Below, one piece after another: positions 44,428 to 58,914 of a stretch of 64,000 nucleotides of DNA. How positions within the stretch are numbered: position 1 is the first letter of the stretch; each line of letters starts with the position of its first letter. Position numbers and translations under genes: made by a program. The notes beneath the pieces are model-generated. The model was given only the letters and a program-made list of their open reading frames with translations. It did no database searches and was not told the origin of the DNA. The stretch is taken from positions 135,876-199,875 of the forward strand of contig SVBD01000001.1 in assembly GCA_015059045.1 (NCBI GenBank). The letters are read 5' to 3'. The stretch is from Erysipelotrichaceae bacterium (GTDB taxonomy: Bacteria; Bacillota_I; Bacilli_A; RFN20; CAG-449).

Positions 44428-45236
44428 CTAAAATAAGATAATTAATATAATTGAAGCAAAAGATAATACTAACCCAACAATGAAAAAATACATTACAATT
44501 TGGTATTCTTTAAATCCTTTTAATTCTAAATGATGATGAAAAGGTGCCATCAAGAATAAGCGTTTTTTCGTTAATTTAAAAAAACTAACTTGAAGTATCA
44601 CACTTAATGTTTCAAAAATAAATAAACCACCACTAATTAAAAGAAATATTTCTTTATGCAATATAATTGCACTTATCCCTAATAACAATCCTAAAGATAA
44701 CGATCCAGAATCACCCATAAAAATTTTGCTAGGATGGAGGTTAAAACTTATGAATCCTAAAGTCGCACCAAAACTAGAAATCAATAAATATGTTAGGTAA
44801 TATTCCTTTTCAATTAAAGAAAATAAGATAAATGGAATAACCGCCAATAAGTATAAAGAGGAACTTAATCCATCCAATCCATCAGTTAAATTTACGCTAT
44901 TAGAACATCCAACTAAAATAAATGGAAACAAAATAAATATATATTTACCAATATTGATTTTATAATCATTTAATAAATTAATATTTTCAAATAAATAATG
45001 CTCTTGAAGATAATATAAACATATCAATGATAATACTAATTCTAAAAGAAATCTGATTATCGAAGGAATTCCATGATAATCTTTAAATTTAACTTTAATC
45101 AAATCATCAACTAATCCTATCAAGAAAAATGAAGTAATCATAATTATTATTACTTTAAAATAACTATAATTATAATATTGATAATATAAGATAGTAGTAA
45201 ATAAGACACTAATGATAATAGCAACACCCCCTAAAG
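44428..45236 (-). pseudogene. mraY: mraY 3' fragment (about 268 codons), separated from its 5' end by the inserted element
   Basis: The frame is open from 44428 up to a TAA created at the element boundary (45237..45239); it encodes SLGGVAIIS...DGLDGL...MGDSGS MraY motifs; the track ORF begins at an internal Met. Confidence 0.85.
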
Positions 45237-45246
45237 ATGGTGCAAC
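45223..45246. other. Left attachment junction (attL-like): host half-site, AAAG direct repeat, then element terminal IR GGTGCAACTTAGGGATTT
   Basis: The host mraY reading frame stops here; base composition switches sharply; the 18-bp IR matches the right end in 17/18 positions. Confidence 0.7.
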
Positions 45247-45306
45247 TTAGGGATTTACGAAAAACAGTAAATTTTTGAGCGACACCTTCAAGCGGGGCAA
45301 ACAAGT

Positions 45307-45353
45307 AAAGACCACACATAAGGATAAAACCTTGTGTGTGGTCTTTCTTTTTG
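45307..45353. terminator. Strong hairpin terminator at the left inner end of the element
   Basis: Perfect 12-bp stem AAAGACCACACA/TGTGTGGTCTTT with a T-rich tail; lies just 3' of the last cargo gene. Confidence 0.6.
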
Positions 45354-45356
45354 CGT

Positions 45357-45635
45357 TTAATCTTCTCCTGTGAGCAACATCACATCAAGCATCGTTCTTG
45401 CACCGAGCCGAAACGCATACACGAATATTGCCTCTTCTGCAAGGCTGGCGTATTCACTCCAACAATCATCGAACCGTTCTAAAATATCACGTTGCTCATC
45501 GGTCATTGCTTTTAGTAGGTCTTCGTGATGCCGAGCCATATACTCCATTAACTGCTTCATCTCGGGAGTGTTGTTACGGCTATCCGATTGCGGATTTATA
45601 TTGCCGTGCCACAATTCTGCAAGCGTATTTTTCAT
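45357..45635 (-). CDS. Hypothetical 92-aa acidic protein (last gene of the cargo operon)
   Basis: Start reassigned to MKNTLAELW, which has an AAGGAGGTG RBS; no recognisable domain. Confidence 0.5.
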   Translation of the reverse strand: MKNTLAELWHGNINPQSDSRNNTPEMKQLMEYMARHHEDLLKAMTDEQRDILERFDDCWSEYASLAEEAIFVYAFRLGARTMLDVMLLTGED

Positions 45636-45722
45636 ATGCACACCTCCTTGTAGCACAACACTATACCACAGGTCTGCGCATAAGTCCAGATAACAAATTG
45701 TGAACGAAACTTTGCCGCAGAG

Positions 45723-47051
45723 TTAGTTTTCTAAAGAGGCTGAAATATAATTTATACCTTCCAAAAAATAGAATTTGGAAAACTTATCTTTTCCCGCTAT
45801 TGGGCGGAATGTAATTTTTATATTTTTCTTTTTTCTCTTTTTTTGTTTTTCAACCGATTCTGCGTTATTTACTTTTGCATCTTTATAAACAATAATATAT
45901 TTTTCTGCTGAAAATCGTTGACCATGTAATGTAATGCCTAGAACTTTACCTTCAACAGCTATTTCGGAAGAAAGGGGTTCTTCTGCAAAGTCATCTGGTA
46001 TTCGGTCGTAATCACAGCGGGTTTCATCGCAAAAATTCGTTTTTACATGATGCCACTTTCCTACTAATGAAGAAGCTAGGATATATGCAGCTCTATAATC
46101 GCTTGTGTATACATCTCCAATACTAATATCAAATTTGCAACCAGTATGTTTTTCTATTGTAAGAAGGTTTTCAATGTAAGCAATAAGATGAGGGGCATTT
46201 TTAAACATTGGCGCCGACAATTCATTTTCATCCAATGTTGCATTTAACAACTCTTTGTCTCCAATCTTGATGGAAAGTTGCTTTGTTTTACCGATTTCAT
46301 TAATGAGCCGTTCACGAGCTAATTGTACATTCAAATCTAACGACGGAACTTTAGTAATATTAAAATCTGTGCGTGCTACATTATCATAAGCGGTAATTGA
46401 AAAATCAAATCCTTGCCCATTAGAAATTGTGCCAAATATCATTTTCCCATACTCAAGACATGGTTTTCTCCTCAATTGAATTTCGATGATTATATTACCC
46501 GATTGGATTGTGGCGGATACGGCAGGTGGAAACTCCGGTGCACCGATTATAGTTATCATTCCATCACGATATTCCATGTTAGGAAAAGGGTCTTCGATTT
46601 CGCCAAGATATTCTCGGTACGCTGTCGTTTTAAGCTCAACCCTTGTTTGTGTTCTATATGCATAATCCCATGGGGTTTCGGACTTACTCATATGAGGATA
46701 CTTTTTGTAGTCAATTTGATAGGTTCCCTTGATTTTTTTGGGATATTTAGATAATGCATCCGCTGTTTCGGGAGTGCTCACCAAGCGCCCTAAATCAGCG
46801 TTGGGTTTTACTGTAAAATCGGGATACAGTGGGTGAACTTTTTTGGCGGCAGAAAGAAAGTCCGTAAACTGTCTTTGAATAATATCATACTTTCCTATCT
46901 GACCGAGGATCGAAATCATTTCTGGCGTATTATTGCAGAAAACAGGAGACTCAACCGTGCTATCCTGAATAACGACATTGTGATTAGAATTTCTGCCGAT
47001 AGTTGAATTGTTTGATGAAGATTTTTTCCAAAACATAGTCTCTCCGTTCAT
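45723..47051 (-). CDS. Hypothetical 442-aa cytoplasmic protein (candidate effector)
   Basis: ORF with GC-rich codon usage; no Walker A and no TM helix; start codon overlaps (ATGA) the upstream 52-aa TM ORF. Confidence 0.5.
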   Translation of the reverse strand: MNGETMFWKKSSSNNSTIGRNSNHNVVIQDSTVESPVFCNNTPEMISILGQIGKYDIIQRQFTDFLSAAKKVHPLYPDFTVKPNADLGRLVSTPETADALSKYPKKIKGTYQIDYKKYPHMSKSETPWDYAYRTQTRVELKTTAYREYLGEIEDPFPNMEYRDGMITIIGAPEFPPAVSATIQSGNIIIEIQLRRKPCLEYGKMIFGTISNGQGFDFSITAYDNVARTDFNITKVPSLDLNVQLARERLINEIGKTKQLSIKIGDKELLNATLDENELSAPMFKNAPHLIAYIENLLTIEKHTGCKFDISIGDVYTSDYRAAYILASSLVGKWHHVKTNFCDETRCDYDRIPDDFAEEPLSSEIAVEGKVLGITLHGQRFSAEKYIIVYKDAKVNNAESVEKQKKRKKKNIKITFRPIAGKDKFSKFYFLEGINYISASLEN

Positions 47052-56946: not shown

Positions 56947-56956
56947 GGACGAGCCT

Positions 56957-57124
56957 ATGGAGAAAACCAAGGAATGCTCTCATAAGACCGAAACCGTTAT
57001 TGACGGCACGGTCTATATCGTGGAATCGGTGAGTGCCGAATCCGCCAAGGACGTGGTGTACGGCAAGGTGAAAAAGCTCATCCTTGACCACGCAAAGTTA
57101 TCCGTAAGTTCACAAGCATCATAA
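56957..57124 (+). CDS. Hypothetical small protein (55 aa) upstream of the recombinase
   Basis: Encodes MEKTKECSHKTETVIDGTVYIVESVSAESAKDVVYGKVKKLILDHAKLSVSSQAS; not in the track because it is under 60 aa. Confidence 0.35.
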   Translation: MEKTKECSHKTETVIDGTVYIVESVSAESAKDVVYGKVKKLILDHAKLSVSSQAS

Positions 57125-57199
57125 CACAAAAGACTTGACTTTTTGGCGATAGTACGGGATAATACAGTACCGCTTGAAGGCTGTCGGAAAGGAGTAAAA

Positions 57200-58852
57200 A
57201 TGAATAACAGACAGCCTACTATCGCCAAGAACGATAGCAAAATTACGGCATTATATTGCCGCCTCTCCCGTGATGACGAACTTCAGGGAGACAGCAACAG
57301 TATCATCAACCAAAAAGCCATTTTGCAGAAATACGCAGATGACAACGGGTTCGGCAACACAATGTTCTTTGTGGATGACGGATACAGCGGAACGAATTTT
57401 GATAGACCTGATTGGCAACGCCTCATCTCTCTTGCGGAAGACGGCAAGATCGGAACGGTCATCGTAAAGGATATGAGCCGACTCGGCAGAGACTACCTCA
57501 AGGTCGGTTACTACACCGAGGTATTCTTTCCGGGCGTTGATATCCGCTTCATTGCCATAAACAACGGTGTGGACAGTGCCAATCAGCAAGACAGCGATTT
57601 CACTCCGTTCCTCAATATCATCAATGAGTGGTACGCCAAGGATACAAGCAAGAAGATACGCGCCGTATTCAAAGCAAAGGGACAATCGGGAAAACCGCTG
57701 TGTACGAACCCACCATACGGATATGTAAAAGACCCCGAGGACAAAAGCCGATGGATTATCGATCCCGAAGCCGCAGAGGTTGTGAGAGAAATCTTCAGCC
57801 TCTGTGTGCAAGGGTACGGACCCACGCAGATTGCAAAGGAGTTGACACGGAGAAAAATTGAGAACCCCGTGGCACACGCTCGTAGGCTCGGCATAACCAT
57901 TCCGGCAAAGCCTCTTGATGATGACCCTTGCATATGGCACGATTCCACGGTGGCTCGGCTGCTGACTCGTGTAGAGTATTTGGGGCATACGGCAAACTTC
58001 AAGACCTACCGCAAATCCTACAAGAACAAGAAGCAGATGCACAATGACCGCGAGGAATGGCAGATTTTTGAGAATACCCACGAGGCTATCATCGACCAAG
58101 AGACCTTTGACATTGTGCAGAAAATTCGTGACGGACGGCGCAGGCTGACTCCTATGGGTGAGATGCCGATCCTTTCGGGAATGCTCTTCTGTGCCGATTG
58201 CGGGGCAAAGCTCTACCAGGTGCGTGGGCGTGGATGGGAGCATAGCCAAGAATACTTCGTGTGTGCTACATACCGAAAGCAAAAAGGCAAATGCAGTTCC
58301 CATCAAATTCGCAACGTGGTCATTGAGCAACTTCTCCTTGAGGATATCCGCAGGGTCACATCTTATGCAAGAGAGCACGAAGACGAGTTCGTAAGGCTTG
58401 TGACGCAAAAGTCCAAGCAGGAGACCGAACGCAATCTTCGTGAGAGTAAAAAGGAACTTGAGGTAGCCAAGGCTCGTATTTCCAAACTCGACAGCATAAT
58501 CCAAAGGCTATACGAGGACAACATAGAAGGCAAGGTTTCCGATGAGCGTTTCGCAAAGCTGACCGATACCTATGAATCCGAGCAAAGAGACCTTGAACGT
58601 CGCATTGCGGAACTGCAGAACTTTATGGCAAACGCAAAAAATGAGTCCCTTGGTGTGGATACCTTCCTTTCGATGGTTAGAAGGTATACGGACATCAAGG
58701 AACTCGATGCGGAGCTTATCCGTGTGTTCGTTGAAAAAATCCTCGTCTACAAAGCTGAAAAGGTTGACGGACACAGGGTTCAGCGTATTAAAATCATATA
58801 CAACGGCATCGGTGAAATACCGACAACGCCTATAAACGAGAAAACGGCATAG
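57200..58852 (+). CDS. Large serine recombinase (integrase)
   Basis: Start at [10 protein letters not shown], which has a GGAGT RBS; catalytic [10 protein letters not shown]; resolvase domain, recombinase domain, Cys-containing zinc-ribbon region and coiled-coil C-terminus; 550 aa. Confidence 0.9.
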
Positions 58853-58876
58853 CCGAATTAACGACTATGCCATTTT
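58846..58876 (+). terminator. Weak hairpin terminator after the recombinase gene
   Basis: GGCATAG...CTATGCC stem followed by ATTTT. Confidence 0.35.
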
Positions 58877-58888
58877 CCCAGGGATTAA

Positions 58889-58914
58889 AAATCCCTAATT
58901 TGCACCCACAAAAG
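58889..58914. other. Right attachment junction (attR-like): element terminal IR AAATCCCTAATTTGCACC followed by the AAAG direct repeat
   Basis: Mirror image of the left end; host mraY coding resumes immediately on the minus strand. Confidence 0.7.

Follow-up and report, generated by a model that had tools for sequence, protein, structure and literature searches.

The window analysed here, a 64-kb stretch of contig SVBD01000001.1 from an Erysipelotrichaceae bacterium, contained an integrative element inserted inside mraY, with ends resolved to the base. The element extended from position 45235 to position 58912 (13,678 bp including one copy of the crossover core). Its G+C content was 42.6% overall, lower than the approximately 50% initially annotated, and was compared with 25-28% in the host DNA of the window. 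The cargo, in the left 6.6 kb, had a G+C content of 38%, and the backbone, in the right 7.1 kb, had 47%. Every long open reading frame (ORF) of the host DNA in the window was on the minus strand.

The two ends of the element carried an 18-nt inverted repeat. The left copy, GGTGCAACTTAGGGATTT, was located at 45239-45256 and its reverse complement at 58889-58906, with 17 of 18 positions matching as first reported. No other match was present in the window at three or fewer mismatches, where 0.08 were expected by chance. The tetranucleotide AAAG was present at both junctions, 45233-45236 and 58911-58914. The initial annotation had described the repeats as directly flanked by AAAG; the tetranucleotides were found, but the repeats do not abut them, as two nucleotides (AT) intervene at the left end and four (CACA) at the right. 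The left coordinates given there (element start 45227, AAAG 45223-45226) were 8-10 nt too low. The crossover dinucleotide AA corresponded to positions 45233-34 in the left attachment site (attL) and 58911-12 in the right one (attR). The P' arm at the left end, AGAT followed by GGTGCAACTTAGGGATTT, occupied 45235-45256 (plus strand), and the P arm at the right end, AAATCCCTAATTTGCACC followed by CACA, occupied 58889-58910 (plus strand), directly before the core. The attachment site of the circular element (attP) was predicted as AAATCCCTAATTTGCACC-CACA-AA-AGAT-GGTGCAACTTAGGGATTT, a near-perfect palindrome (folding z = -6.5).

The mraY gene was split between the two flanks on the minus strand. 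Its 5' part (58911-59086) consisted of codons 1-58 (58913-59086) and the AA core (58911-58912), which represents the first two bases of Leu59, and the interrupted ORF read on into the element as far as a stop at 58895 (63 aa). The 3' part (44428-45234) consisted of the AA core (45233-45234), the third base of codon 59, codons 60-326, and the stop codon. Joining the sequence up to 45236 to that from 58915 onwards restored an uninterrupted MraY of 326 aa on the minus strand, as had been annotated. The core lies in the conserved K-x-x-T-P-T-L-G-G motif of MraY, and no base was gained or lost. The Pfam family Glycos_transf_4 was found on intact MraY homologues. No Rfam family and no tRNA gene was detected in or beside the element, so the element does not target a tRNA.

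A search with the rebuilt MraY recovered intact 326-aa proteins at 99% identity, together with a truncated NCBI protein, MBE6131926.1 (annotated as 'MAG: Erysipelotrichaceae bacterium'; allele P0005). The reconstructed chromosomal site (attB) was looked for in related genomes, as the initial annotation had suggested. The 26-nt attB core formed by the in-silico junction, TTGACCCCGACTTTAGGGGGTGTTGC, was exact in all 15 retrieved contigs of the same species, which came from at least 13 samples and shared 98.4-98.7% identity with the window in its host DNA. In each of these wild-type loci, mraY was intact (alleles P0001, P0002, P0125, and P0122) and attB was free of junctions, and an intact mraY allele was recorded in many further contigs. 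Because these contigs carry exactly the empty site derived in silico, the insertion is real, scar-free, and derived.

Both junctions recurred in assemblies made with SPAdes (NCBI metagenome-assembled genome (MAG) and JGI), Logan, and MEGAHIT/ENA, and in at least two runs (SRR7031345 and SRR7030982). The recurrence across assemblies and runs excludes an assembly chimera, in which a Clostridia element would have been misjoined to an Erysipelotrichaceae contig. Such a misjoin would account for the large contrast in G+C content, and it could draw on the near-identical backbone copies in other organisms of the same microbiome and on the assemblies that break inside the element. It has a practically negligible probability, since the junctions were reproduced by several assemblers, the host flanks join to the base as natural mraY, as a random misjoin would not, and the anatomy of the junctions is the same as in dozens of other insertions. 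The breaks themselves, which in contigs L008 (SRR7030982_138776) and L133 (SRR7031345_31669) fall in the cargo or inside the recombinase gene, some 100 nt from its edge, would be expected if the same sample contained near-identical backbone copies of other organisms. The real integrative element with base-resolved ends proposed at first was thus confirmed, with corrected coordinates, by the recurring junctions and the exact empty sites.

The crossover point was mapped by comparison with related copies. The 550-aa recombinase of the element was found at 100% identity on 14 contigs, among them L003-L005, which represent other hosts and other cargo. The right ends of L003-L005 were invariant through TTGCACCCACAAA and then diverged. 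In all copies with the identical recombinase the P arm was unchanged, and divergence began immediately past CACA and AA. When one genome per prokaryotic species was scanned with GGTGCAAMTTAGGGATTT, more than 100 ends were obtained, nearly all in Clostridia MAGs, including Oscillospiraceae, Lachnospiraceae, Ruminococcus, and Christensenellales. Related ends were also present in Butyricicoccus porcorum BB10, an Oscillospiraceae isolate. The left-end consensus was flank-[AA]-AGAT-GGTGCAAC and the right-end consensus TTGCACC-CACA-[AA]-flank. A complete 12.9-kb relative in an Oscillospiraceae MAG (CAZAJX010000001.1; L013/L035), with a recombinase of 98% identity, carried a CA core and not AA at each of its two junctions (L013 ~111-132; L035 ~4993-5016), which pins the crossover to the two nucleotides adjoining CACA and AGAT. 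Among the 23 sites, 22 had AA as the core dinucleotide and the remaining one had CA. The attL and attR sites shared the 2-bp core alone, with no further target duplication, and the joined flanks were identical to the natural empty site.

In the IMG/VR contigs L173 (5808-5851) and L187 (4445-4488), right and left ends were joined head to tail at the 27-nt spacing of the predicted attP, in the order AAATCCCTA, 12 nt, core, 13 nt, TTAGGGATT. The recombinases of these contigs were 66% and 61% identical to the enzyme of the window. Members of the family therefore do occur as circles or tandem copies. Matches to the 18-nt motif also occurred in Algoriphagus (L023, L048, L058, L071, L079, and L083), Flavobacteria (L086, L094, and L125), and Pseudomonas (L068 and L105). 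No recombinase lay in their vicinity, and their flanks are conserved within the genus. These Bacteroidota and Pseudomonas matches are apparently not element ends but conserved sequences unrelated to the element.

The large serine recombinase (LSR) of 550 aa (57200-58852, plus strand) carried the Pfam domains Resolvase, Recombinase, Zn_ribbon_recom, and DUF4368. According to Pfam it was the sole recombinase in the element and lay at its right end, in agreement with the initial annotation. DUF4368 (PF14287) was located at the C-terminus with an E-value of 4.6e-23. The best solved relative of the catalytic domain was TnpX of Tn4451 (2mhc_A), with an E-value of 2.5e-42 and 62% identity over 117 aa. 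The Y-x-R-x-S serine motif was present, and a 10-residue stretch aligned with ALYERLSRDD of TnpX. Directly upstream, a 55-aa TnpW-family protein was encoded at 56957-57124 on the plus strand (PF14202, 27.2 bits against a cut-off of 25); TnpW was also annotated in the Bacillus badius relative described below. DUF4368 marks a multi-targeting LSR clade that includes TndX-like transposases (Durrant et al. 2022, PMC10083194). The 100% identical recombinase was present in at least four unrelated flanks, and enzymes of at least 91% identity in at least seven more; none of these other insertion sites was in mraY. Differences in specificity residues were excluded as the cause for the four sites by the 100% identity of the protein. 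Given the DUF4368 domain, the kinship with TnpX, and the occurrence of an identical enzyme in unrelated sites, the recombinase is classified as a multi-target transposase of the TnpX/TndX type and not as an mraY-specific integrase.

A target motif was derived as a weight matrix from 23 non-redundant half-sites. Common to the half-sites were an A-run, located at -10 to -13 relative to the core, and, at -2 to -8, a C-rich stretch in which CACC was frequent. The reconstructed attB of L013/L035, AAAAAATCACCTCT[CA]CGAGGTGATTTTTT, was a perfect terminator-like palindrome that formed a hairpin followed by a T-run (z = -7.8). The attB of a copy on a B. badius plasmid likewise formed a hairpin followed by a T-run and was located between convergent genes. 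The usual target thus resembles an intrinsic terminator, with an A-run, a GC-rich CACC stem, the core in the loop, and a T-run. The mraY codons for K-K-L-T-P-T-L-G-G (AAAAAATTGACCCCGACT-TT-AGGGGGT) provided an A6 run followed by an ACCCC/GGGGT stem, as in a terminator-like site, and the left arm of the mraY site, CACCCCCT, resembled the P arm of the element, CACCCACA. The ACCCC/GGGGT dyad had been annotated as a symmetrical target; it is present, but with arms of 5 bp it is weak and not unusual (folding z = -1.7; 16 of 200 shuffles folded as well). The mraY site appears to be an opportunistic, off-type site in a new AT-rich host and not a dedicated attB.

A classical site-specific serine integrase, with the TPTLGG-coding stretch of mraY as its dedicated attB, would agree with an insertion that is exact, leaves no scar, and lies in a coding motif of high conservation, and also with the small dyad in attB. 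This alternative is very improbable because the identical 550-aa enzyme occurs in three other unrelated flanks, recombinases of 91-98% identity occur in at least seven more, none of them mraY, the enzyme has the DUF4368 domain and is related to TnpX, and the mraY insertion is confined to one strain in one study, with the 15 loci of the same species empty. From the originally proposed integration by a serine integrase, the inverted attP half-sites, the short core, and the exact empty site were retained, and the dedicated palindromic attB in mraY was replaced by a multi-target enzyme. A recombinase with at least 20 natural targets, an AA core, and a terminator-like motif would be useful for multi-targeting genome-insertion tools.

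The left end of the element was formed by a conserved module (45235-45709), 92% identical to other copies, which encoded a DUF6809 protein (45357-45635, minus strand). The variable cargo region (45710-51819, minus strand) contained genes for an AbiGii-like protein (45723-47051, minus strand; a PADLOC match alone), three unknown proteins of 165, 311, and 242 aa (47225-49329, minus strand), and a fused EcoRI-type N6-adenine / C5-cytosine DNA methyltransferase (49330-51441, minus strand). PHROGs and NCBIfam gave no match for the 442-, 165-, 311-, and 242-aa proteins or the small ORFs of the element, and searches of solved structures with the 311-aa and 242-aa cargo proteins gave none. In the 311-aa protein (47712-48647, minus strand), two stretches resembling LAGLIDADG motifs were noticed on visual inspection (LLGMILGNGEI and LLRGIADVTGYI); no database match supports them. 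A possible role of the 311-aa protein is that of a nuclease paired with the fused methyltransferase.

A Cro/C1-type helix-turn-helix (HTH) regulator (HTH_26; 51469-51690, minus strand) was followed by about 8-10 copies of degenerate direct repeats of 55-70 nt (51750-52450), located between the HTH and primase genes. The repeat array, which gene callers sometimes report as a spurious ORF of 183-187 aa, is probably the replication origin (iterons). The adjacent gene encoded a primase-polymerase / D5-type helicase of 763 aa with a P4-family primase C-terminus (52529-54820, plus strand). Three small conserved ORFs of 93, 97, and 93 aa (55135-55987, plus strand) followed, the third with a weak zinc-ribbon signal.

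The gene at 56008-56946 (plus strand) encoded a 312-aa homologue of HK97-fold major capsid proteins, which matched positions 126-384 of TIGR01554 with an E-value of 8e-62. The match covered the HK97 model only past the N-terminal delta domain, and the delta domain was lacking. The protein was 36-38% identical to capsid proteins of 52-64-kb gut Clostridia phages. The capsid gene was directly upstream of the recombinase gene in 48 of 65 IMG/VR relatives, at full length and 34-50% identity, and also in most genome relatives. A gene that is full length, syntenic, and diverged in this way indicates long-term purifying selection.

The backbone (51820-58912, 7.1 kb), which starts just past the HTH gene, was 99.6% identical in DNA to L003-L005, where a BpuJI-type restriction-modification system took the place of the cargo of the window. 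A more distant copy of about 13.3 kb was found on the B. badius plasmid pPM400 (NZ_CP082364.1; L145 ~3370-16700). Its recombinase was 66% identical, its layout comprised HTH, P4-type primase, capsid protein, TnpW, and recombinase, and its cargo was a type III restriction-modification system and an AAA ATPase. The family therefore reaches Bacilli and plasmids. The three complete members measured 12.9, 13.3, and 13.7 kb despite their differing cargo. Primase, small ORFs, and capsid gene were also present on a 4.7-kb scaffold from human faeces in Mexico (MT838964.1, 'UNVERIFIED: Bacteriophage sp.'; L144), whose capsid protein was 45% identical to that of the window. This scaffold would be a hint of encapsidation if it was derived from purified virus-like particles.

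The general layout of the family was DUF6809, variable defence cargo, HTH, repeats, primase-helicase, HK97-type capsid protein, TnpW, and recombinase. No description of such a family was found in the literature on DUF6809, on TnpW with capsid proteins, or on LSR satellites in Clostridia, and the element is assigned to a large Clostridia family for which no published description was found. The conserved capsid gene suggests a new, satellite-like lifestyle. Alternatively, the element could be what is left of a decaying prophage, or simply a mobilisable island, with the capsid gene as a relic and transfer by mobilisation, transformation, or generalised transduction. A single virion gene, with no terminase, portal, or protease, is what a remnant would contain, and Tn6215 moves by phiC2 transduction and by a conjugation-like route with no capsid gene (PMC3870246). 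This alternative is considered unlikely, although it keeps some weight, because the capsid gene is full length and adjacent to the recombinase gene in most IMG/VR relatives despite their divergence, the sizes of the complete members are close despite cargo differences, and no relaxase, oriT protein, or TnpZ was detected. Searches of all ORFs against Pfam, NCBIfam, and PHROGs found no relaxase/Mob family, TnpZ, oriT protein, coupling, or type IV secretion gene.

The element was compared with known mobile elements. It shared with Tn4451/Tn4453 of C. perfringens and C. difficile an LSR with a DUF4368-type C-terminus, an adjoining TnpW, and a catalytic domain 62% identical to that of TnpX. Like the element, Tn4451 has imperfect inverted ends and a 2-bp crossover and inserts at sites that resemble its joined ends. 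The crossover dinucleotide of Tn4451 and Tn5397 is GA, whereas AA was used in the element (22 of 23 sites). The element has twice the size of Tn4451 and lacks TnpZ/oriT, TnpV, TnpY, and catP, and the mobilisation module of Tn4451 (TnpZ/Pre relaxase and RSA site) has no counterpart in it. Unlike Tn4451, it has a primase-helicase, a repeat array, a capsid gene, DUF6809, and defence cargo. With Tn5397 (TndX) and the DUF4368 LSR clade it shared DUF4368 and many targets per enzyme, but Tn5397 is a 21-kb conjugative Tn916-like element and the element has no conjugation genes. Tn6215 of C. difficile (13,008 bp) is similar in its size of about 13 kb, its serine recombinase, and its intragenic insertion, and is itself moved by phage phiC2 (PMC3870246). 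It has erm(B), RepA_N, a truncated TnpZ, a topoisomerase, and a TCC duplication of its own and neither a capsid gene nor a primase (PMC3870246). Identity of the element with Tn6215 was rejected on these differences in gene content.

Phage satellites (PICI, cf-PICI, P4-like, and PLE) shared with the element a size of 11-18 kb, a module of integrase, HTH regulator, and primase, and defence cargo. The combination of integrase, regulator, and primase within 10-18 kb that characterises satellites was present in the element. A large serine recombinase is used by PLE as well, and cf-PICIs have a capsid protein of their own, as the element has a capsid-protein gene. In contrast to these satellites, the element had no terminase small subunit, portal, protease, head-tail connectors, or capsid-size-redirecting genes. 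It has a single capsid gene, a multi-target TnpX-type enzyme in place of a site-specific integrase, and no known helper phage. The elements skin in sigK, SPbeta in spsM, and phi10403S in comK are likewise serine-recombinase elements in coding sequences, and their precise excision rebuilds the gene. The element in mraY differs from them in its essential housekeeping target, in its non-site-specific enzyme, and in an adjacent deletion that makes restoration pointless.

This deletion, which was absent from the initial annotation, was located 1.1 kb from the left element junction. The wild-type gene order was Mur ligase, mraY, type III glutamine synthetase (GSIII), murD, ftsW, murG, murB, ftsQ, and ftsA, and glnA-murD-ftsW-murG was intact wherever the wild-type locus extended that far. 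The presence of a 668-aa GSIII gene between mraY and murD in the dcw cluster of this species (L010 6991-8997; L134-L143, L146) is an unusual arrangement. Alignment with L010 (7270-11914) showed a 4,645-bp deletion in the window, with its junction near 44140 and ATAT microhomology. The genes murD and ftsW, most of the GSIII gene, and two-thirds of murG, from its 5' end, were lost, which left an in-frame fusion ORF of 198 aa, GSIII(1-93)::MurG(~218-322), at 43822-44418 on the minus strand. The murG-like ORF initially recommended as a primer site is this fusion of a GSIII N-terminus with a MurG C-terminus. The split mraY was present in each of the seven contigs encoding the fusion protein, and the deletion was found in none of the 15 wild-type loci. 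An origin of the deletion by action of the recombinase was rejected on account of the ATAT microhomology and of a junction with no resemblance to the att arms.

The deletion also bears on a reversible switch like those of skin, SPbeta, and active lysogeny at Listeria comK, in which precise excision would restore mraY whenever a wall is needed and the strain would alternate between life with and without a wall. Excision would rebuild mraY exactly, TnpX-type enzymes catalyse both excision and insertion with no separate directionality factor, and joined ends exist for relatives. The adjacent loss of murD, ftsW, and part of murG is irreversible, however, and was present in every insertion contig, so excision alone cannot restore wall synthesis. 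In addition, neither attP nor an empty-site contig was seen in the insertion-carrying samples, and the family is normally found in intergenic, terminator-like sites. A switch of this kind is accordingly given little probability.

The host contig, at 39.01x coverage, belongs to the MAG bg0r3_ps_bin.99 (Ery6, Erysipelotrichaceae, SVBD00000000) of Peng et al. 2021 (PMC8007473). The sample name denotes bagasse, batch 0, replicate 3, in a penicillin-streptomycin enrichment from a goat-gut source (PMC8007473). The abundance of the MAG was non-zero in bg0r3_ps alone (0.43%), and it was absent from faecal pellets, from no-antibiotic and chloramphenicol cultures, and from later batches (PMC8007473). 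Erysipelotrichaceae were enriched under penicillin-streptomycin and were said to 'have developed resistance' (PMC8007473). The element family was present in further MAGs of that study (SIG379, SIG509, SIG706, SIG708, and SIG709; SV.. accessions), which makes them plausible donors in the same community, and the flank of L003 was 99.9% identical to the Oscillospiraceae MAG SIG709. As its backbone is 99.6% identical to Oscillospiraceae copies of the same goat-faeces microbiome, the element evidently entered its 26%-G+C Erysipelotrichaceae host recently.

Since mraY is split and murD, ftsW, and murG are lost, no lipid I or lipid II is expected, and the strain should fail to make either, barring duplicate genes elsewhere. 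It probably lives without peptidoglycan as a stable, L-form-like organism. A wall-less genotype would explain why the mraY insertion was tolerated, why the neighbouring genes were lost, and why the strain was seen only under a beta-lactam. The stable E. coli L-form LWF+ carries a loss-of-function mraY together with other dcw-cluster lesions (PMC10600066), and beta-lactams are reported to favour L-forms when conditions are protective (PMC5847170). The present case differs from LWF+ in that the lesions are a transposon insertion and a deletion, the organism is a gut Erysipelotrichaceae that is uncultured and comes from an anaerobic enrichment of mixed composition, and the wall-less state is a predicted one. 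The nearest wild-type contigs differed by about 1.5% from the host DNA of the window; the two lesions may have arisen in either order, and the insertion in the goat or in the culture.

In the proposed mechanism, the serine recombinase joined the circular element to the chromosome through attP, with the crossover at AA in the Leu59 codon. Its relaxed specificity, evident from the many insertion sites, would let the element hit an mraY site that imitates the terminator-like target. The insertion split mraY in the same strain that irreversibly lost murD, ftsW, and the 5' part of murG. Without lipid II, a wall-less life would allow the insertion to be tolerated and penicillin to be survived. After excision, the element may be replicated from the repeat array by the primase-helicase, and it may be transferred, like a satellite, in phage-derived particles, as suggested by the strictly conserved capsid-protein gene. 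The variable left half carries restriction-modification and abortive-infection cargo. Integration is the established step of this cycle, and we infer replication and particle transfer.

Several observations weigh against this interpretation. The exact attP, TTGCACCCACANNAGATGGTGCAA, had no match in IMG/VR and JGI metagenome contigs, and no empty site was seen in the insertion-carrying samples, so present-day mobility is unproven. The mraY site ranked 11-24 of 14,408 AA positions in 50 kb of host DNA with a crude matrix; the choice of the site is thus unexplained quantitatively, and a rank of this kind is compatible with relaxed specificity without settling the matter. Neither a portal, protease, or terminase gene nor a packaging signal was found in the element, and the satellite idea depends on one capsid gene. 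The nearby genes for Mur ligase, penicillin-binding protein, murB, ftsQ, ftsA, and ftsZ were all intact at wild-type lengths, from which the gene loss is judged to be recent. The MAG reached just 0.43% and was undetected in later culture generations. The DNA inspected is this locus, and a second copy of mraY, murG, murD, or ftsW elsewhere in the MAG is possible.

On balance, a 13,678-bp non-conjugative element of the Tn4451/Tn5397 (TnpX/TndX) type is the best overall explanation, and it is held with good confidence. More tentatively, and with somewhat less than even chances, the locus may represent a natural, stable wall-less lineage (L-form-like, an incipient mollicute) selected by penicillin, together with a widespread, undescribed family of about 13-kb, capsid-carrying, satellite-like elements of gut Clostridia that move defence cargo from one class to another. 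The recombination mechanism is known; new are the capsid-bearing family and the combination of an mraY hit with a wall-gene deletion in a penicillin-selected gut bacterium. The essential lipid-I synthase gene is split in a bacterium that still assembles at 39x coverage. Peng et al. left the survival of Erysipelotrichaceae under penicillin-streptomycin unexplained, and loss of the drug-target pathway would, if true, be a concrete answer for this MAG. As a member of the lineage closest to the Mollicutes, the strain would then be a naturally occurring model of wall loss.

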